Assembly: GCA_949012915.1 (NCBI GenBank)
Contig: CARLBU010000004.1
Coordinates: 79,314-124,416 of the forward strand
DNA length: 45,103 bases
Origin: an uncultured Lachnospiraceae bacterium
GTDB taxonomy: Bacteria > Bacillota > Clostridia > Lachnospirales > Lachnospiraceae
Direction of reading: 5' to 3'
Each line of letters starts with the position of its first letter. Positions within the stretch are counted from its first letter, which is position 1. The translations under genes and the position numbers were made by a program. Under the pieces are notes generated by a model. The model had not been told where the DNA came from and made no database searches. It was given only the letters and a program-made list of their open reading frames with translations. Of the stretch, positions 203-33,752 are shown piece by piece.

Positions 203-235
203 GAAAGGACATAAATAGGAGGGGGGAGGACGCAG

Positions 236-385
236 GCAGGAGAGAGGGATTCTTTGCTGGGGCCGTTTGCACTAAGGCTTCTTCGCAGCGGACACATAAG
301 GTGCTAAAGAACAGCACCTAAGTGCCGGCGGGAAGCAATACCCCTGCAAAGATTCCCTCTCTCCTGCCTGCTGTGTATTCCGACC
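236..385 (+). repeat. Family-1 palindromic repeat, copy A. A ~22-bp outer stem closes a conserved ~90-nt core, followed by a conserved tail CTGYRTATTCCGACC.
   Basis: Outer stem gcaggagagagggattctttgc pairs with gcaaagattccctctctcctgc. The core tggggccgtttgcactaaggc...gtgccggcgggaagcaataccc recurs at 980-1130, 23467-23618 and 23836-23985. The terminal hairpin GGTGCT/AGCACC shows compensatory changes relative to GGCACG/CGTGCC in the other copies. Confidence 0.8.
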
Positions 386-398
386 GGAAAGCTAGAAA

Positions 399-851
399 TT
401 ATTTGTGAATATACATTCTTGACATATGGGGTTCTCCATCTCCTTGAACCATATATAAGAATTCCCAGCCATATTTCTCATAGAAGCTGGTATGATCAGT
501 AAGTAAATAGATAGGCGTTATGGACTTGGATTTCAAATCCTCTACCACCATATTAAGCAAGTGTCCGGCTATCCCCCTACATCGGTAGTCTTTTTCTGTA
601 TAGACTGCACAGACATTAGGAACAAGATCTTTTCTATTGTGGAAGTCATTTTCAATTACACCAAGACCTCCTATTATTTTTTTCTCATCTAAGCAAAGAT
701 ACCAGCCATATTCCGTTTCGTTGTTAAGATAAGCGTTCATACATTCCAGATAAGCTTCTTTGGGAACGCCCCATTTACAATGGAACCATTCGGCTGCTGT
801 ATCTTTTATCTGTGGCTTTTGCCTTAAAGTGATATATGTGTACTTTTTCAT
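399..851 (-). CDS. GNAT-family N-acetyltransferase
   Basis: 150-aa ORF with a GNAT acetyl-CoA binding motif region (..RCRGIAGHLLN..). It lies between inverted family-1 repeats A and B. Confidence 0.75.
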   Translation of the reverse strand: MKKYTYITLRQKPQIKDTAAEWFHCKWGVPKEAYLECMNAYLNNETEYGWYLCLDEKKIIGGLGVIENDFHNRKDLVPNVCAVYTEKDYRCRGIAGHLLNMVVEDLKSKSITPIYLLTDHTSFYEKYGWEFLYMVQGDGEPHMSRMYIHK

Positions 852-979
852 ATTTTCTTTTCTCCGTTTTTGTTTTATGACTTAATTTCTTTCATTTTAC
901 TATGACTTTAAGAGCGTGGAAATTTGGTTTGTGTTCCCAATAGGGAAAATGCAGAAGGACGAATTTGAACACTTGAATT

Positions 980-1130
980 TAGGAATATACAGTATGGAGC
1001 AGAGAGGGTTTCTTTGCAGGGGTATTGCTTCCCGCCGGCACTTAGGCACGGTATTTTCGTGCCTTATGTGTCCGCTGCGAGGAAGCCTTAGTGCAAACGG
1101 CCCCAGCAAAGAAACCCTCTCTGCTTCATA
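980..1130 (-). repeat. Family-1 palindromic repeat, copy B (inverted relative to A)
   Basis: It is the reverse complement of the copy A core. Outer stem tatggagcagagagggtttctttgc pairs with gcaaagaaaccctctctgcttcata. The tail ctgtatattcc is on the inward side. Confidence 0.8.
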
Positions 1131-1156
1131 CGTCCGGTGTCTGGTTCAGCTCTATT

Positions 1157-2194
1157 TTAAAAGGTTTCTTCTACTTCTATTTGGCGGCAGCTACCTCTTA
1201 TAATAAGAGAATGTGGAACAATAATCTTTGTTGCCAGTAAATTAGGGTTTTCAATATGATTAATAAGCTGTGAAGCTGCTTCAATTCCCAGTTGGTGTGA
1301 ATTAATATCAATAGAAGTTAATTGAGGGGATGTAATCCGTGCAAACAGGGAATTATTAAAGGAAACGATAGAGAGATCCTCTGGGACAGACAAACCGCAC
1401 TGTACACAGATCCGCTTTAGTGCAACAGCTAAAATATCATCACTTGCGACAACGGCAGTAGGGCGATCTTCTCGTTTCAGCAGGGCATGGAAGAGTGGAT
1501 TCTGATCCAGAGAAAGCTGTTCTACTTCGATGCAGTAATCGGGGAAAATCGGTATTTGATGCTCCGAGAGTGCTAATTGATAACCGGCTTTGCGTTCTGC
1601 AGAAAAGAGCATATTATATTCGCTTCCGACATAGGCAATTCGTCTGTGACCTAAGCTGTATAGATATTCGGTGGCTTCTTTTCCTGCTAGAAGGTTGTCA
1701 TTATCGATATAGATGGTTTGGTTGACAAACTGCTTTGCTTTGCCAATTAAGACATAGAGCAGACCCTCATTGTAGAGGTAGTCAATAATGGCATCGTCTT
1801 GTTTGGAATAGAGGATAATATAGCCCCCCATTTGCTCATCTTTTCCTAGTGTTTGAATGGCACGCAGGATTTCTTCTTCGTCTTGTCCCGTTACAATGGT
1901 ACTGATATATTCTCTTCCGTTGCAGAATTGGCTGATTCCTCGGATTGCCTCTAAGTAGAAAGAATTTTCATAGACTTCTCTGGAGGAAGGAGGAAGAATA
2001 ATACTGATTGTCTGGGGAGATTGTCCGGTTTGTGAATTGGCGGAAATATTAGGTTCGTATCCTAATTGTGCCATCGCAAATCGGACTTTTTCTTTTGTTT
2101 CTCTGCTGATCGAAGAGTGATCTTTGCAGGTTCTGGATACAGTGGAGGGAGATACGCCTGCTAATGCAGCAACATCTCGGATTGTAACAGCCAT
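1157..2194 (-). CDS. LacI-family transcriptional regulator (likely maltose regulon repressor)
   Basis: N-terminal HTH MAVTIRDVAALAGVSPSTVSRT followed by a periplasmic-binding-like sugar-binding domain. Reads divergently from the PTS/malQ operon. Confidence 0.85.
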   Translation of the reverse strand: MAVTIRDVAALAGVSPSTVSRTCKDHSSISRETKEKVRFAMAQLGYEPNISANSQTGQSPQTISIILPPSSREVYENSFYLEAIRGISQFCNGREYISTIVTGQDEEEILRAIQTLGKDEQMGGYIILYSKQDDAIIDYLYNEGLLYVLIGKAKQFVNQTIYIDNDNLLAGKEATEYLYSLGHRRIAYVGSEYNMLFSAERKAGYQLALSEHQIPIFPDYCIEVEQLSLDQNPLFHALLKREDRPTAVVASDDILAVALKRICVQCGLSVPEDLSIVSFNNSLFARITSPQLTSIDINSHQLGIEAASQLINHIENPNLLATKIIVPHSLIIRGSCRQIEVEETF

Positions 2195-7222: not shown

Positions 7223-7250
7223 GAGGGGGAAAGAGGATTTCGGAGGGGAC

Positions 7251-7485
7251 GCCAGAGTGCATTAGGGGTACACGGTTCCGCTCTTCGGAAAGTAAGAGGC
7301 TCTAAGACTTCTGGTGTTGGGTGTATCTAACCGGACGGATCGGGGTGCAATTCGCCCGTACAGCGGGCTAAACACACCCCTTTTTTTGCCATTCGAGAAT
7401 GGCAAAAAATCCTAATGGATCGACAGAAGTCTAAGAGCCTCTAACTTTCCTACGAAGTCACCGTGTACCCCTAATGCACTCTGGC
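7251..7485. repeat. Family-2 repeat, copy 1. A ~185-nt conserved core carrying terminators, flanked by perfect 22-bp inverted arms found only in this copy.
   Basis: The core ccggacggatcggggtgcaattcgcccgtacagcgggctaaacacaccccTTTTTTTgccattcgagaatggcAAAAAAt is also present at 33288-33527. The arms cagagtgcattaggggtacacg and cgtgtacccctaatgcactctg are exact reverse complements. Confidence 0.8.
7352..7410. terminator. Tandem intrinsic terminators inside the family-2 core. The first is GGGGTG..CACCCC followed by T7 on the plus strand; the second is a bidirectional T6-GCCATTC-GAG-GAATGGC-A6 hairpin.
   Basis: A GC-rich stem is followed by a T-run, and a perfect 7-bp hairpin is symmetrically flanked by T6 and A6. 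They lie downstream of malQ. Confidence 0.65.
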
Positions 7486-7681
7486 TGTATTATGGCACAA
7501 TTTATGTTTTGTTTTTACCTTTTGTTGTTTTTTGTTATGAAATTAGATTGATTTTGGGTGTTTGCTGGATATATTTTTTTATTGGTTGGTTTATGATTTT
7601 TTTTTCTTTTCTTTTATTTTATTTATTTATTCCAGTGTTCCGTGTTTGTTATGTGTTTTTTGTTTTTATTTTAACCTCATT

Positions 7682-7828
7682 AAGGAAGTCCCCCGCTTTC
7701 GCCTTGGCGGCTTAGAAGCGGGGGACTTCCTTGTTTCAGTGGGAGTGCAGACTCCCACTGAAAAGTTGCGGTAGCAGCTATGAGGTTATGAGCAAGTAGC
7801 GAAGCAGATTGCGAATATCCGATTTGAC
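7682..7828 (+). repeat. Family-3 repeat, copy 1: an 18-bp GC-rich hairpin (AAGGAAGTCCCCCGCTTC/GAAGCGGGGGACTTCCTT) plus a 46-nt module aggttatgagcaagtagcgaagcRgattgcgaatatccgatttgac
   Basis: The hairpin and module recur at 33648-33752 and 29487-29583 with the same hairpin orientation. In the third copy the module orientation is reversed. Confidence 0.75.
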
Positions 7829-7994
7829 TAAAAGTGTAGAAAAAAGTGTTATTTGGGATGAAAAAGTGGTATAGTAGGATAAGAATAGTTTTGTTTGCAT
7901 TTATAAATTTGCGTTTGCAGAGATAGTAGAGGATAGAAAATTGGGTTTTGATAATGGGTATTATGTTGAAAGGTGTAGAGGGGGAAGTTTGCTG

Positions 7995-9823: not shown

Positions 9824-10612
9824 ATGTATATGATTTTAGAGTTGGAACATATTCAAAAATATTATGGAAATAAAGGAAATCTGACAAAAGCGATTAAAGA
9901 TATTAGTTTTTCGGTGGAAGCAGGTGAATTTCTTAGTATTATGGGAGCTTCTGGTTCCGGGAAAACAACACTGCTTAATTGTATCTCTACGATTGATACG
10001 GTAAGTGCAGGTCATATCTATTTGGATGGAACAGATATAACGGAGATAAAGCCAAAGTCGCTTGCTCGGTTTCGCAGAGAAAATTTGGGTTTTGTGTTTC
10101 AAGATTTTAATTTGTTGGATACACTGACCATTTCCGAAAATATTGCATTGGCACTGACAATTAATCGGATGCCTGCAAGGATGATTGAGAAAGCTGTTTT
10201 AGAAATGGCAGAACAGTTGAATATTTGTGATATTCTTGATAAATATCCTTATCAGGTATCTGGAGGGCAGAAGCAGCGTTGTGCCTGTACCAGGGCAATG
10301 ATTCATAAGCCGAAGCTTTTGTTAGCGGATGAACCGACCGGGGCTTTGGACAGTCATTCGGCACAGATGCTGTTATCTACGATTCAAGGGATTCATAGAC
10401 AGATTGGAACAACGATTTTAATGGTGACACATGATGCTTTTACAGCTAGTTATGCTGAGCGGATTTTATTTTTGCAGGATGGGGAAATTTTTATGGAATT
10501 GTATAAAGGGAGTGACAGCAGAAGTGCCTTTTTTCAAAAGATTTTAAATGTGCTGACTATGATGGGAGGAGGAAAGAGTCATGTATGTGAAACTGGTTTT
10601 TCGAAATGCTAA
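9824..10612 (+). CDS. ABC transporter ATP-binding protein (BceA-like)
   Basis: Walker A GASGSGKTT, signature SGGQKQR and Walker B LLLADEP. Confidence 0.9.
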   Translation: MYMILELEHIQKYYGNKGNLTKAIKDISFSVEAGEFLSIMGASGSGKTTLLNCISTIDTVSAGHIYLDGTDITEIKPKSLARFRRENLGFVFQDFNLLDTLTISENIALALTINRMPARMIEKAVLEMAEQLNICDILDKYPYQVSGGQKQRCACTRAMIHKPKLLLADEPTGALDSHSAQMLLSTIQGIHRQIGTTILMVTHDAFTASYAERILFLQDGEIFMELYKGSDSRSAFFQKILNVLTMMGGGKSHVCETGFSKC

Positions 10613-12794
10613 GCGGTCGGTAAGGGATTATTTAGTTTATGTTGTAACTATGACGATATGTGTAACGCTGTTTTATTCGTTTTTGTCTATTTCCAGCAGA
10701 TATTATAAGCCGGATATTGGAAGTGAGTATGATTTTACGATGCTTAGTGACGGAATGAAAGCGGCCGTCTGTATGATTACATTGTGTTTGGCTTTTTTAA
10801 TCTGGTTTGTGAATCGATATATGCTGCAGCGGAAGCAGAAAGAGTTTGCCCTTCAGTTGATTATGGGAATGGAGCAAAAGACGGTTGCGGGGCTTTTCTT
10901 TGCGGAAACGCTGATAATGGGAATGATTTCTATCGGACTGGGAATTTTTTTTGGTGTGTTTTGTTCTCAGTTTATTACGGCAATGTTATTGACTTCTTAT
11001 GGGAAAACGTATCAGTTGGCATGGACACTGTTTCCAGATACGGTATTGCTGACGGCAGTGTTTTTTATTTTAAGTTTTTTTGCAGTGGGAAGTTTGAATA
11101 CTTATATGATTCGAAAGACGAAAATTGTTGCGATGCTTTCGGCGGATAGAGAGAATGAGCCTGAATTGAAGAAGAGCCGTTGGATTTTTGCAGTGGTGAG
11201 GATTTTCGAAGGATTTATGCTTTGGAGACTTATAACTGGGATACGGAAGGTTTGGTTTTATTATGACAGCCGTTTTGCTGTTCCTGTACAGGTTATGTTC
11301 TGGGGGAATCTTTTTTTTCCGGCTGTTACATTAGGCTGCTTTTTATTGTGGATTGTCCGAAGGAAAAAAAGAAAGGATTCTTCCTTACTTTTGGGACTGT
11401 TGGTGTGTTCGGTTTGTAATGCTTTTTTGGCAGCCAGTGTACCGGGTATAATCCATCAATATTATCTGCCGTTGGGGTCGGGGATAAAAAATCAATATCT
11501 GGTGTTTCTTTTGGCGGATCTGCTGTTTTTTATCTGTGATTTGATCTATTTGGCAAGCGGTCAGATTGCCGCATGGAAGGAAAAGTCACCGGAACATAAG
11601 TATAATGGAGAAAATTTGTTTTTTTGGGGACAGATTATTTCGAAATTAAATACCACCAGTAAGACAATGACGCTGATCAGTATTACTTTAGTACTTGCGA
11701 TTGTGATGTTTATTGCGGCACCTATTTTAACAGGTTGGGCTTCTGGATATTTGGACAGCCGTTCGATGTATGATGTGCAGATTTTTTCCAGATATAATCA
11801 GGTCTATCAAGAAGAATATTTGCCGCAGGATGACTATTTGCTGGCAAGTGATTTTTTGGGAGAGCATAGGATCGAGATTGCTTCTGATTGTACCTTTTAT
11901 CTGTATTTACCTAAGAAAGAAGAGTTTCATAATCGGAAGAAATATGAATTTCCTGCTGTGGCGATTTCTCTTAGTGATTATAATAGGATACTGACGATGT
12001 TAGGGAAAGAACCGATTTTTTTAGAGGAGAATGAATTTACAACACAGTGGAAATCCGTTGCAGCAAAGGAGGAACGGGACGATTTTCTTAGAGAACATAC
12101 CCATATCCTAACAGATGCCGGGGAATTGACGCTTTCAGAAGAGTCTTATTATCAGCATGAAATCGGACAAACGGTTTACAATTCCTATACCAATGTTTTG
12201 TATGTCTTTCCAGATTCGATTTGTGAAAGTTTGCTTCCGGTTATGCGGGATCGCTATATTCTAACAGAGAGAGGGATTTCTTATGCGGATGCTTGTAAAT
12301 TGGAAAGGGAATTTATAAAAGAATATCCCGAGCAGACAGAGAATGGCACAGCATATGGAATTCGTTTGCGTACCCTGCAGATAAATGGTACAAAGGCCAA
12401 TAATTTTGTTCTGCAGGCGGGGATGATTTATGCTGCCGTTGTGTTGATGGTAATCTGTCTTACCATACTTTCTCTGCAGCAGCTTTTGGATGCAGGGCAG
12501 TATCGCTATCGTTTTTCCGTACTTCGAAAATTGGGAGTGGAAGAGCAGAGAATCAAAAGACTTGTATTTCGGCAGTTAGGAGTGTGGTTTGGACTTCCCG
12601 TTGTTGTTGCAGTAGGGGCGGCTGTCGTTGTGCTTGTTTACTTTGTTCAGACGATATCGGCAGAAATTTCGGCATATATTGGGAGTAGGGCACTGCTGAT
12701 ACAGATAGGTGCAACTGGGGGAATTCTTATGCTGCTGCTGATTTGTTATTTTATTAGTACTTGGATTTTATTTCAGTACTCTATTAGTGAATGA
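10581..12794 (+). CDS. ABC transporter permease, FtsX family (BceB-like, large extracellular domain)
   Basis: 737 aa; the N-terminus MYVKLVFRNAKRSVRDY is typical of BceB-type permeases. It has ~10 TM segments with a long loop, and overlaps the ATPase gene. Confidence 0.85.
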   Translation: MYVKLVFRNAKRSVRDYLVYVVTMTICVTLFYSFLSISSRYYKPDIGSEYDFTMLSDGMKAAVCMITLCLAFLIWFVNRYMLQRKQKEFALQLIMGMEQKTVAGLFFAETLIMGMISIGLGIFFGVFCSQFITAMLLTSYGKTYQLAWTLFPDTVLLTAVFFILSFFAVGSLNTYMIRKTKIVAMLSADRENEPELKKSRWIFAVVRIFEGFMLWRLITGIRKVWFYYDSRFAVPVQVMFWGNLFFPAVTLGCFLLWIVRRKKRKDSSLLLGLLVCSVCNAFLAASVPGIIHQYYLPLGSGIKNQYLVFLLADLLFFICDLIYLASGQIAAWKEKSPEHKYNGENLFFWGQIISKLNTTSKTMTLISITLVLAIVMFIAAPILTGWASGYLDSRSMYDVQIFSRYNQVYQEEYLPQDDYLLASDFLGEHRIEIASDCTFYLYLPKKEEFHNRKKYEFPAVAISLSDYNRILTMLGKEPIFLEENEFTTQWKSVAAKEERDDFLREHTHILTDAGELTLSEESYYQHEIGQTVYNSYTNVLYVFPDSICESLLPVMRDRYILTERGISYADACKLEREFIKEYPEQTENGTAYGIRLRTLQINGTKANNFVLQAGMIYAAVVLMVICLTILSLQQLLDAGQYRYRFSVLRKLGVEEQRIKRLVFRQLGVWFGLPVVVAVGAAVVVLVYFVQTISAEISAYIGSRALLIQIGATGGILMLLLICYFISTWILFQYSISE

Positions 12795-12931: not shown

Positions 12932-12960
12932 AGAAAAGGAAGATACTTTATAAAAAATAA

Positions 12961-12995
12961 AAATACAACACTTGTTAGTAAAATGTTGTATTTTT
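12961..12995. other. Left recombinase core-type site: two ~14-bp inverted arms around the 7-bp spacer GTTAGTA
   Basis: aaatacaacacttGTTAGTAaaatgttgtattttt. Its reverse complement is nearly identical to the site at 13748-13784, so the two sites are in inverted orientation. Confidence 0.6.
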
Positions 12996-13015
12996 ATATT
13001 TTTTATATCGGTGTT

Positions 13016-13122: not shown

Positions 13123-13713
13123 TTAGAGTGTAATTTTTAAATACACTTCATCTCTTTCGTCTTGTTCAATACTTAAATATCGCTTGGTAATGCTGTAGGA
13201 GGAGTGATTGTAAAGATCCATTAAAAGGGCTGGAGGGGTTCCCTGTTTCCACGCATGATAACCGAATGTCTTCCTTAGAGAGTGGCAGCTGATATGTTGA
13301 TCCAGTCCAGATGCTTTGGCAGCAGTACAGATAATTCGGTAGGCTTGAGAACGACTGATTGGCTCATTCTTTCCTTTCTGACTTAAGAAGAGATACTGCT
13401 CTTTTTCATAGGGTTTTTCCTGGAAGGAATACGAGAGGTAGTTTTTTAGGGTGGTGCAGATAGAGCGGTTTAATGCAATCGTGCGGGATTTTCCAGTCTT
13501 TTGTTCTATTACTTCTAAATGTTTTTTCATGGTTTTAGTATGGTCATCATAGATATCGTTCCATTTTAATGTGAGAATATCGGAGATTCGCAGTGCTGTA
13601 TTTAGTCCCAATATAATCAGGGTATAGTTTCTTGGCTGAGGTTTTTGCAGCAAATAATAATTTTTAAATTGGTTCAGTGCATCTTTGCTTTTAATAGGCT
13701 GTGTTGTGCTCAT
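13123..13713 (-). CDS. Small tyrosine site-specific recombinase (catalytic domain only, FimB/FimE-sized)
   Basis: 196 aa with catalytic residues in order: R in ..LNTALRISD.., K in ..KTGKSR.., HxxR in ..HSLRKTFG.., H in ..LYNHSS.., and Y in ..ITKRYL... There is no N-terminal core-binding domain. Confidence 0.8.
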   Translation of the reverse strand: MSTTQPIKSKDALNQFKNYYLLQKPQPRNYTLIILGLNTALRISDILTLKWNDIYDDHTKTMKKHLEVIEQKTGKSRTIALNRSICTTLKNYLSYSFQEKPYEKEQYLFLSQKGKNEPISRSQAYRIICTAAKASGLDQHISCHSLRKTFGYHAWKQGTPPALLMDLYNHSSYSITKRYLSIEQDERDEVYLKITL

Positions 13714-13747
13714 GATAGATCCTCCGTTCGTTGAATTTTGCTTTCTT

Positions 13748-13784
13748 AAAAATGCAACATTTTACTAACAAATGTTGCATTTTC
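13748..13784. other. Right recombinase core-type site: aaaatgcaacattt-TACTAAC-aaatgttgcatttt
   Basis: 14-bp inverted arms flank a 7-bp asymmetric spacer. It is the inverted partner of 12961-12995, and the two bracket the recombinase gene. Confidence 0.6.
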
Positions 13785-13826
13785 ATATTGGCACAGAAGA
13801 CATGGAGAAAACAAGGAGGTTTTTAG

Positions 13827-23419: not shown

Positions 23420-23466
23420 AGAAGGGCAAGATGGTTGCATAGGAAGGTAGTTTCGGGGCGGACGTA

Positions 23467-23618
23467 GGTATGGAAAGGGAAATTCCCTGCTGGGGCCGTT
23501 TGCACTAAGGCTTTCTCGCAGCGGACACATAAGGCACGAAAGTACCGTGCCTAAGTGCCGGCGGAAAGCAATACCCCTGCAGAGAATTCCCTTTCCATAC
23601 CTACTGTATATACCGACC
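23467..23618 (+). repeat. Family-1 palindromic repeat, copy C
   Basis: Outer stem ggtatggaaagggaaattccctgc pairs with gcagagaattccctttccatacc. Core is conserved. Tail is tactgtatataccgacc. Confidence 0.8.
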
Positions 23619-23712
23619 TGTTGGCAGATAAATCCTGTTTTGATTTTGTATTCTTAATAAACGGTGAATAGATATAGAGTAGAGATATGCTTATGCTATT
23701 GATTTGATATTA

Positions 23713-23760: not shown

Positions 23761-23835
23761 AGAATATTAAGGCGAATCGTTTAGTTGAAAATATGGATAA
23801 ATTTTATACAGCAGAGATGGTGCAAAATGAATAGG

Positions 23836-23985
23836 AAGGAACAGACAGCTTGTATCGAAGGAGGTTTCTTTGCAGGGGTATTGCTTCCCGCCGGCACTTA
23901 GGCACGGTATTTTCGTGCCTTATGTGTCCGCTGCGAGGAAGCCTTAGTGCAAACGGCCCCAGCAAAGAAACCTCCTTCGATACAG
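23836..23985 (-). repeat. Family-1 palindromic repeat, copy D (inverted relative to C)
   Basis: Outer stem ctgtatcgaaggaggtttctttgc pairs with gcaaagaaacctccttcgatacag, a perfect 24 bp. Core is conserved. The tail faces inward. Confidence 0.8.
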
Positions 23986-24298
23986 GCGTACGGGATAGCT
24001 ATAAATACAATAGGAATAAATATACAAAAAATAGACAGTAAATTTAACCAAACAGGATTTGTAGATTTTTCCTTTTTTGGCACTTATTTTATAAAAATTT
24101 TAGCAGTTTTAAACACTTATAAATCCTGTTAAATTTTATTTTTATGGATTTATTGGTGTTTTTTTCTATATTTTCAAGAAAAAAATGGGTTATTTTATTT
24201 GCTTTTATCAAAAGATGTCAACTTATGACTTGCATTAATTTTTATTTTGGATTATAGTTAGATAAAGTACAGTATATCAATGGAAAGAGAGGACGTTC

Positions 24299-29486: not shown

Positions 29487-29583
29487 AAGGAAGTCCCCCC
29501 GCTGCTTTCTGGCTTAGAAGGGGGACTTCTTTGATAGGGTCAAATCGGATATTCGCAATCCGTTTTGTTACTTGCTCATAACC
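29487..29583. repeat. Family-3 repeat, copy 3: a GC-rich hairpin plus the module in inverted orientation
   Basis: aaggaagtccccccgctgctttctggcttagaagggggacttctttg is followed by gtcaaatcggatattcgcaatccgttttgttacttgctcataacct, which is the reverse complement of the module seen at 7782-7828. It lies downstream of rnfB. Confidence 0.7.
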
Positions 29584-29698
29584 TATACTGAAATCGAATG
29601 GGATATCGGTTCTAAATTTTTTTATACTTAGAATCGGCATCCTATTTTATTTAAAAACCTACTTTGAATCAGATTATTAGTAATAAGGAGAAAAGAAT

Positions 29699-33201: not shown

Positions 33202-33287
33202 GGGACATGTTGAAAGGGAGGGGAGCGGAGAGGAAGTTTTATGTTTTATGGCTGGAATAAAGAGTGGGGTGTGTCAAGACGGACGCT

Positions 33288-33527
33288 AGAGTTGGGAAGC
33301 AATATCTTTCTGTTGTTCCGCTCTACGGAAAGTAAGAAAATCTAAGGCTTCTGCATTTACCTGTATCCAACCGGACGGACCGGGGTGCAATTCGCCCGTA
33401 CAACGGGCTAAACACACCCCTTTTTTTGCCATTCGAGAATGGCAAAAAATCCTAGAGATCGACAGAAGCCTAAGATTTTCTAACTTTCCTCCGAAGTCAC
33501 AACAGAAAGATATTGCTTCCCAACTCT
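33288..33527. repeat. Family-2 repeat, copy 2. Same terminator-bearing core as copy 1, with different, perfectly inverted 29-bp arms.
   Basis: Arms agagttgggaagcaatatctttctgtt and aacagaaagatattgcttcccaactct are exact reverse complements and unrelated to the copy-1 arms. The core is >90% identical to 7275-7465. Confidence 0.8.
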
Positions 33528-33647
33528 GGCTGTTTTCTGCTGCTTGTAATATTTTGTATCTTGCCTGTTCCTCCTGTGCTTTTTGCTGGCAGGGGCAGAG
33601 GCAGTGGGGCATAAAATAGTTGAAACCGCCGAACCTCGGCACAATGG

Positions 33648-33752
33648 TCTGGCGGCTTAGAAGCGGGGACTTCCTTGATGAGGTTATGAGCAAGTAGCGA
33701 AGCGGATTGCGAATATCCGATTTGACTTTCGTATCTTTCCGTATTCGCAATC
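33648..33752 (+). repeat. Family-3 repeat, copy 2 (3' half of the hairpin only, plus the module and a downstream hairpin)
   Basis: tggcggcttagaagcggggacttccttg-atg-aggttatgagcaagtagcgaagcggattgcgaatatccgatttgac, followed by ..tattcgcaatc, which pairs with gattgcgaata. Confidence 0.7.

Follow-up and report, generated by a model that had tools for sequence, protein, structure and literature searches.

A family of structured palindromic repeats with a conserved core in the intergenic DNA of gut Lachnospiraceae

RESULTS

Four copies of a hairpin repeat

The window analysed in this work, a stretch of 45,103 nucleotides from an uncultured Lachnospiraceae bacterium, hosts four copies (A, B, C and D) of a large hairpin repeat that we call family 1. 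The unit is ~170 bp long, within a range of 150-190 nucleotides, and consists of a near-perfect stem of 26-31 bp that encloses an almost invariant core of ~105 nucleotides. It can be read in two senses. The A-sense runs GGACG, arm, complement of the core, partner arm, CTGT and tail. The B-sense, the orientation of copy B and the complement of the A-sense, runs tail, ACAG, arm, core, partner arm and CGTCC. The copies, with tip coordinates verified base by base for all four, and the gene between the first two are:

228 to 399, minus strand: copy A (on the plus strand GGACG 228-232, stem 232-262/341-371, CTGT 371-374, tail to about 399)
399 to 851, minus strand: GNAT acetyltransferase gene, between copies A and B (Pfam E 2e-10, generic GNAT domains)
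964 to 1135, plus strand: copy B (tail 964-988, ACAG 989-992, stem 992-1022/1101-1131, core about 1023-1100, CGTCC 1131-1135)
23460 to 23632, minus strand: copy C (GGACG 23460-23464, CTGT 23604-23607, tail to about 23632)
23823 to 23991, plus strand: copy D (tail, ACAG 23845-23848, stem 23848-23878/23957-23987, CGTAC 23987-23991)

Copy A is located between the end of a YbaK-like gene (stop codon at about 201-203) and the stop codon of the GNAT gene, and copy B ends 21 nucleotides short of the stop codon of a LacI-family gene (1157-2194, minus strand). Copy C starts 41 nucleotides past the PNPase stop codon, and copy D is found about 300 nucleotides upstream of rnfC.

When the entire window was scanned without filters using a covariance model built on the conserved core, exactly these four family-1 copies were identified. 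A repeat finder reports the inverted arms of A/B (228-381 and 982-1135, 154 nucleotides) and of C/D (23483-23622 and 23830-23969, 140 nucleotides), both 86% complementary, as well as a self-complementary stem of 31 nucleotides, 94% complementary, within each of A, B and D. Both A/B and C/D are inverted pairs with their tails facing inward. An initial annotation of this DNA, made by a model from the letters, had already described four hairpin copies and the inward tails of A and B, and these descriptions hold. Its dimensions needed revision: the outer stem, the conserved core and the conserved tail all exist, but the stem is longer than the 22-25 bp proposed, the core is longer than ~90 nucleotides, and the tail (consensus CTGTnTATTCC) extends about 20 nucleotides further. 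The same annotation warned of spurious open reading frames (ORFs) across the repeats; the ORF at 916-1203, which spans copy B, is such a spurious frame, and a search for frames of this kind across the repeat yielded a single protein. A weak match to the covariance model at 11934-12040 (minus strand, 15.4 bits, rough E 0.001), within the coding region 10581-12794, is most likely noise.

Compensatory changes preserve the pairing

In the alignment of the four copies, long invariant blocks are flanked by diverged stems. The outer stem is the most variable segment of the element. Only the 5-nucleotide tips (GGACG/CGTCC) and the inner few pairs are conserved within it; the roughly 20 bp between them vary freely, with differences that are mainly transitions and a position-specific, purine-rich consensus that is loose in the 5' arm. 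The core, on the other hand, is nearly invariant. It hosts an inner module of ~70 nucleotides, the part common to the whole superfamily and the only part that distant relatives from gut metagenomes retain. In copy B this module is:

1037 to 1106, plus strand: CGCCGGCACTTAG, a 7-bp hairpin (loop GTNYTTT), CTTATGTGTCCGCTGCG and a 2-bp mini-hairpin with a GNRA-type loop (GT[GCAA]AC)

Of 108 copies, 105 carry a GNRA sequence in the mini-hairpin loop when read on the B-sense strand, with seven variants among them; the loop bases GU..UUU of the 7-bp hairpin are conserved as well. Folded as RNA, the complete A, B and D hairpins reach -84 to -92 kcal/mol on both strands (z -10 to -12), which none of 200 shuffles equalled. 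The DNA folds of B and D come to about -50 kcal/mol (z about -10 to -12), with the two strands equally stable.

Pairing was scored in three alignments, each compared with shuffled and slid controls:

42 full-length family-1 copies, 55-pair consensus: 98.3% of cells paired (shuffled 81%, slid 41-48%), double changes in 34 of 55 pairs
32 diverse superfamily members, core only: 99.3% of cells paired (shuffled 85%, slid 23-54%), double changes in 9 of 18 pairs
103 distinct model-aligned copies: 98.9% of cells paired (shuffled 86%, slid 21-53%), double changes in 14 of 18 pairs; a caveat is that this alignment was fitted to the structure

In the family-1 alignment, two-sided changes occupy 413 cells, against 119 in the shuffles. 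The helix beside the module covaries across subfamilies, e.g. GCTTCC/GGAAGC, AAAAACG/CGTTTTT, GACCGC/GCGGTC and CATTTCC/GGAAATG. A good example at shorter range is a pair of orthologous copies from two metagenome-assembled genomes (MAGs; loci L013 and L014), whose flanks are 84-90% identical: 4-5 stem pairs are fully compensated, there are no half-steps, and the core is almost unchanged. The initial annotation had pointed to a terminal hairpin that reads GGTGCT/AGCACC in copy A and GGCACG/CGTGCC in B-D. That example is correct in the alignment, and the general claim drawn from it, that pairing is kept through compensatory substitution, is confirmed with 98-99% of cells paired, far above both types of control.

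Distribution of the family

The conserved core 19-mer occurs in 36 stretches of a species-representative genome set. Thirty of these are in the uncultured Lachnospiraceae MAG MGBC128194, five are in a second Lachnospiraceae MAG, and the last, in Sphingopyxis, is a chance match with no element around it. The MGBC128194 count (at least 30 loci) is a lower bound, as contigs often end inside the repeat; this is the case for L002, L005, L007, L011, L015, L016, L029 and L034. A looser pattern retrieved 42 stretches from metagenomes, which are more distant relatives. The covariance-model search beyond the window that the initial annotation had called for (model R1) returned 108 copies in 85 sequences. 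Family members occupy intergenic DNA in a subset of gut Lachnospiraceae and in related Clostridia.

Known RNA families were ruled out with Rfam 15. At gathering thresholds nothing matched in the window or over the elements of 14 related loci; at relaxed E-values there was only microRNA-precursor hairpin noise over copy A, and nothing over the elements of 12 further loci. We also rejected an origin from plasmids, phages or viruses (such as oriT or sso), given that blastn found no similar sequence in plasmid and phage collections and the 19-mer has no exact match in viral contigs. The complement strand (hairpin, then TAAGTGCC) resembles MOBQ nick regions, but the resemblance spans only 7 nucleotides and was dropped. 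Our literature search found no description of such an element, nor of interspersed repeats in Lachnospiraceae. Family 1 is a real repeat family that is apparently catalogued nowhere.

Orientation of pairs and of solitary copies

Close pairs obey a strict polarity. In all 13 close pairs among the family-1 loci an A-sense copy is followed by a B-sense copy, so that the GGACG tips point outward and the tails inward, and the outward rule holds for 21 of 21 close pairs when model-detected copies are added. Within 2 kb, the sole exception is a pair of direct copies separated by 1.5 kb. The spacers range from 38 to about 1,000 nucleotides and are unrelated to each other. Most are 40-190 nucleotides of AT-rich DNA, and three hold a gene: the GNAT gene of the window, a metallophosphoesterase gene (L023) and a small Cys/Gly-rich ORF (L022).

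The pairs are not recent local inverted duplications, because the stems of partners are barely closer (similarity 0.53) than those of random copies (0.47). The inverted cores of partners are about 95% identical over 105 nucleotides. Inverted cores of this length around promoter-sized spacers are what an invertible DNA switch would need, with recombination between the cores flipping the spacer. However, a crossover within the cores would leave copies with arms of mixed origin, and in all 13 family-1 pairs the two arms of a given copy still match each other. Solitary copies are also as common as pairs, and the sole chimeric copy that we found (L094, described below) joins different gene neighbourhoods and may be a misassembly. 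We regard a switch as highly improbable.

Solitary copies are oriented too. Between co-directional genes, as judged from heuristic ORF calls, the GGACG tip faces the upstream gene in 21 of 24 cases (binomial p about 3e-4). Such copies often begin 2-40 nucleotides past a stop codon, where no other terminator-like hairpin was found. What follows the hairpin is CTGTnTATTCC or CGTCC, depending on the sense, and a terminator scan gives weak internal sites only. An intrinsic (Rho-independent) terminator was therefore rejected, since there is no U-tract 3' of the hairpin.

Several side observations concern the surroundings of the copies. The DNA has an unusually strong GC skew, which is +0.22 across the window, reaches 0.3-0.4 in MGBC128194 contigs and tracks gene direction. 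As the skew is tied to gene direction, the polarity may have a replication-linked or a transcription-linked cause. At L020 (5364-5754) the spacer of a pair is a tandem array of about seven 57-nucleotide units that resemble the element tail (...CAGCCGAAACGTTGTTTTGCAGATTTTGAC...). L017, L021, L026, L032 and L033 show shorter duplications, of the tail or of the tip.

Copies inside transcription units

Some copies are located within transcription units. In the por operon, one copy separates porA from porB. In the ileS leader of three lineages we find a T-box with its terminator, an A-sense copy, a spacer, a more diverged B-sense copy and then the ileS ATG; the T-box match (E about 1e-10) is below the Rfam threshold. 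The B-sense copy ends 22-28 nucleotides from the ATG in two lineages and about 90 nucleotides from it in the third (L070).

L062, 4091 to 4824, minus strand: ileS-leader pair with a spacer of about 85-90 nucleotides; also found at L051, L061, L070 and L086

The two copies in this leader are mutually complementary, so two alternative folds are possible. A promoter in the tail was considered and rejected: the tail has no conserved promoter or consensus match, and promoter-like sites pointing into the copies are not enriched. With copies in the por operon, a pair in the ileS leader and no promoters of their own, it is plausible that the copies are co-transcribed with their neighbours.

These locations raise the possibility that the element is mainly a cis-acting structured RNA of mRNAs that stabilises 3' ends or intercistronic regions, is processed by RNase III or binds a protein in leaders. 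It would be selected locus by locus, its copies would be repeated occurrences of a single functional motif, and mobility would be secondary. Under this reading the near-invariance of the core, unpaired bases included, while stems and flanks are saturated, would reflect function. So would the double changes without half-steps in the L013/L014 orthologues, the pair kept between T-box and ileS ATG in three lineages, the starts just past stop codons that have no other terminator-like hairpin, and the strict retention of the GNRA-type loop and the GU..UUU bases. That said, the sense usual in mRNAs is the complement of the GNRA strand, and the missing U-tract means that the hairpin is no classical terminator. 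Wobble pairs make up about 1% and are strand-symmetric in the core, which is unusual for selected RNA helices. Furthermore, truncated remnants represent copies that were lost without obvious harm, and no Rfam family matches. We consider a cis-acting RNA possible, but doubtful.

Wobble pairs were used to ask which strand is the functional one. Across the core of 103 copies there are 15 G-U and 17 A-C cells among 1,698. As both are equally rare, neither strand is favoured, and compensation is almost entirely Watson-Crick. Long DNA quasi-palindromes can gain matched changes in one step through template switching, so the covariation is no proof of selection on RNA. GNRA-type loops such as GCGAAAGC are unusually stable in DNA too. 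The initial annotation held that the copies behave like structured RNAs or like transcribed palindromic elements of the ERIC, Correia or RPE type. It chose the right class of transcribed palindromic element. The pairing is not necessarily an RNA signature, given the Watson-Crick compensation, the equal rarity of G-U and A-C in the core, the possibility of template switching and the lack of promoters.

A different RNA reading is that the copies are genes for a small trans-acting or self-processing RNA in the ACAG-to-CGTCC sense, with the polarity arising because that sense harms host mRNAs. The GNRA loops stand on this strand, which is usually antisense to the flanking genes. A hand count from the pair tables gives about 32 G-U against 9 A-C cells in the family-1 outer stem in the B-sense, and 32 of 42 copies are more stable when folded in the B-sense; the wobble asymmetry, however, is gone from the core of the 103 copies and from whole-element folds. 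Transcription from the spacer of a tails-inward pair would yield the B-sense of both copies, but neither a conserved tail promoter nor an excess of promoter-like sites into the copies was seen. A B-sense copy just upstream of the ileS start, moreover, indicates that this sense is tolerated in an essential mRNA. We find a trans-acting RNA improbable.

The acetyltransferase gene and its interval in related species

The initial annotation identified 399-851 as a GNAT acetyltransferase, and the Pfam match supports this. It also suggested a possible antibiotic-modifying role, which found no support: the best NCBIfam match, ArsN2, scores 20.9 bits against a cut-off of 125, and no resistance family was reached. 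A promoter-like site is located at 922-894 on the strand of the gene.

A larger suggestion was that copies A and B bound a mobile cassette, i.e. that an inverted pair forms the ends of a foldback or MITE-bounded transposon (MITE, miniature inverted-repeat transposable element) which carries its spacer, here with the GNAT gene. The uniform geometry, with GGACG tips outward like terminal inverted repeats, and the genes found in three of the spacers are in line with such a transposon. The behaviour of the gene is not. The exact GNAT protein occurs in 16 contigs, all 16 of which share the context of the window, so that the A-GNAT-B unit has no second genomic site among them. Homologues with 75-86% identity number at least 8,000 candidates, and the three that were examined have unrelated contexts and no flanking copies. 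The spacers are unrelated and mostly short AT-rich DNA, the stems of partners are little more alike than those of random copies, solitary copies are common, and one "cargo" would be porB, inside the por operon. The annotation also proposed a comparison of relatives for presence or absence of the unit. The site between the YbaK and LacI genes (203-1157 in the window) is syntenic with:

L088, 5447 to 7291: D12 methyltransferase and an unknown ORF, no such repeats
L090, 5468 to 7526: 5'-nucleotidase/LysM protein, no such repeats
L092, 5468 to 5533: interval of 64 nucleotides with an ordinary terminator, A-GNAT-B absent (YbaK 75% identical)

The comparison cuts both ways: the whole unit is indeed missing from L092, but as the same site holds other, unflanked genes in L088 and L090, the absence reveals that the site is variable, not that a cassette moves. 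Nor is any target duplication seen. The support that the cassette model retains is the pair geometry and one inter-species indel, and we hold it to be quite unlikely; we treat the GNAT gene as context of the element. As a side observation, the YbaK-LacI site is a hot spot for gene content, occupied by the GNAT gene in the window species.

Gain, loss and decay

The presence of the family varies between species, as copies differ at syntenic sites. In addition to the interval above, HisS and DUF445 are separated by a copy in L092 but by 22 nucleotides in the window species and in L088. Copies also decay by deletion. Four truncated remnants retain the outer tips, which fits this process. The apparently empty site in L014 retains the conserved tip of the element itself, and is hence a deletion product and not a true empty site. 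The one indel junction carries the 6-nucleotide repeat AAAAAC, which fits deletion better than target duplication. The idea that the stem arms are copied from the target, in the manner of spacers, was rejected on the basis of their position-specific purine-rich consensus, the predominance of transitions and the nature of the L014 site. A chimeric copy at L094 (2435-2621), compared with L092, has mismatched arms and joins different gene neighbourhoods; it is either a product of recombination at the repeat or a misassembly.

A shell shared with a second repeat family

The GGACG and CTGT ends are not confined to family 1. The window hosts two copies of a second family, whose core (about 190 nucleotides) is unrelated to that of family 1:

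7247 to 7488, plus strand: family-2 copy (shell GGACG, C, variable arm, core, partner arm, G, CTGT)
33281 to 33533, plus strand: second family-2 copy, with the same shell

Family 2 is multi-copy in the same MAGs as family 1, and GGACG points outward in 3 of 3 of its close pairs (L004, L021 and L092). Since two unrelated cores share both the shell and the outward rule, it seems to be the shell, as a frame, and not the core that sets the polarity.

Further repeats were noted in passing. A third short repeat of 46-50 nucleotides (91-98% identity) occurs three times, at 7780-7829, 33678-33727 and, inverted, 29539-29584. Two of its copies are located about 150-300 nucleotides downstream of the two family-2 copies, and the one at 7780-7829 lies beside a strong G+C-rich hairpin at about 7686-7733 (GGAAGTCCCCCGC...GCGGGGGACTTCC). 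Elsewhere, two 43-nucleotide inverted repeats (12954-12996 and 13747-13789, 88% complementary), each palindromic and flanked by A/T, bracket a lone minus-strand ORF (13123-13713) and resemble paired bidirectional terminators.

DISCUSSION

A proposed structure-recognised mobile repeat

We propose that family 1 is a mobile DNA repeat that is recognised by its structure and co-transcribed with its neighbours, belonging to the broad class that includes REP/BIME (repetitive extragenic palindromic elements and bacterial interspersed mosaic elements), MITE, BOX and ERIC (enterobacterial repetitive intergenic consensus) elements. We judge this explanation to be about evenly poised between right and wrong. 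From the features described above we infer movement by means of a folded single strand, a partner protein and an effect on mRNA, if any. The unit would consist of a shell (GGACG, a 26-31 bp stem of free sequence, CTGT and the tail) and a cargo, the conserved asymmetric core. A trans-acting enzyme of the host or of an element would recognise the folded, single-stranded shell and the module during copying, which would account for a module that is conserved and a stem that needs only to pair. The copies sit shortly behind stop codons, within operons and in leaders, their GGACG end turned toward incoming transcription, and a co-transcribed copy would place a very stable hairpin into the mRNA.

A number of observations weigh against this proposal. 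No target-site duplication is visible at family-1 copies and no clean empty site could be delimited, at a divergence too high for a target duplication to be read; only the ERZ777011 subfamily, whose ends are TAGG...CCTA, may have a TA duplication. Neither a transposase nor any other recurrent neighbour gene is found in 730 kb around the copies: clustered flanking ORFs belong to housekeeping families only, and a six-frame translation of the same DNA contains no Y1 (HUH) motif. Among 101 loci there is also no autonomous, transposase-encoding relative, and no copy is split by an inserted gene. The termini of classical MITEs are conserved, yet here the stem next to the 5-nucleotide tip is the most variable part. 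If the copies are old enough for their stems to be saturated, a nearly invariant core implies selection on each copy or gene conversion, which favours a function at the locus over a purely selfish repeat. Finally, the GNRA loop is a hallmark of RNA, and the proposal offers no explanation for a GNRA strand that is usually antisense to the flanking genes.

A bolder version of the mobile-repeat proposal, which we offer as a speculation that is rather unlikely, is that the shell serves gut Clostridia as a handle for a mobilisation or processing system, so far undescribed and specific for hairpins, that carries varied structured cores. The module, with its GNRA-type loop and conserved 7-nucleotide loop, would be a new functional RNA or single-stranded DNA with a dedicated protein partner, and the ileS pair a working regulatory instance.

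The family matters for several reasons. Hairpins of -85 to -90 kcal/mol past stop codons, in operons and in the ileS leader probably shape mRNA processing and stability. The Lachnospiraceae are a dominant family of gut bacteria, and the repeat is abundant enough to break metagenomic assemblies, create chimeric contigs and generate spurious ORFs.

Comparison with known systems

REPs are 20-40 nucleotides long, REPINs are about 100 nucleotides long, and the motif at their foot is GTAG. These elements and their RAYT (TnpA-REP) transposases have been described previously (PMC5581495, PMC6006769). Like REP, BIME and REPIN elements, the repeats studied here are intergenic, multi-copy, palindromic units of a kind recognised as hairpins. 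They often form inverted doublets (21 of 21 close pairs), occur at 3' ends and between the genes of operons, carry short conserved bases at the hairpin foot and keep the hairpin through compensatory changes. They differ in length (150-250 nucleotides), in their stem of 26-31 bp and in a conserved core that is large and asymmetric. The foot is GGACG/CTGT and not GTAG, the doublet spacers are unrelated and reach 1 kb, and no RAYT-like gene was seen around the copies.

Correia elements (CREE/NEMIS) of Neisseria form RNA hairpins that are RNase III substrates and alter mRNA stability. They are repeats of 100-155 bp with inverted ends of about 26 bp, co-transcribed with their neighbours, in all of which they resemble the present family. 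Their ends, however, are conserved and accompanied by a TA duplication, and their interior is no conserved structured module, whereas here the stem varies and the interior is conserved. A classical MITE was rejected on similar grounds, as conserved terminal inverted repeats are absent and only the 5-nucleotide tips and inner few stem pairs are kept. With variable termini, a conserved core, no visible target duplication and no transposase found, the family departs from both REP elements and classical MITEs in their specific features.

Integron attC sites are likewise imperfect palindromes (57-141 nucleotides) that are recognised by structure, lie beside gene cassettes and conserve only short foot motifs. 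But attC sites form same-way arrays, carry R''/R' boxes (GTTRRRY), have an integrase nearby and vary in the centre. The foot motif, the inverted pairs, the conserved centre and the lack of an integrase next to the window copies rule them out here.

The BOX, RUP and SPRITE elements of Streptococcus pneumoniae, bcr1 of the Bacillus cereus group and ERIC of enterobacteria are similar in general character. They too are transcribed intergenic repeats of about 100-200 bp with stable predicted RNA hairpins, and compensatory changes have been reported for them; they share no sequence similarity with the family studied here, which has no Rfam match. We know of none among them with a shell shared by unrelated cores, an ends-outward rule or a module of ~70 nucleotides that crosses genera. 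The cross-genus module, the shell common to unrelated cores and the strict outward polarity lie outside the standard predictions for MITE and REP elements, and together they point to a protein partner that could be found.

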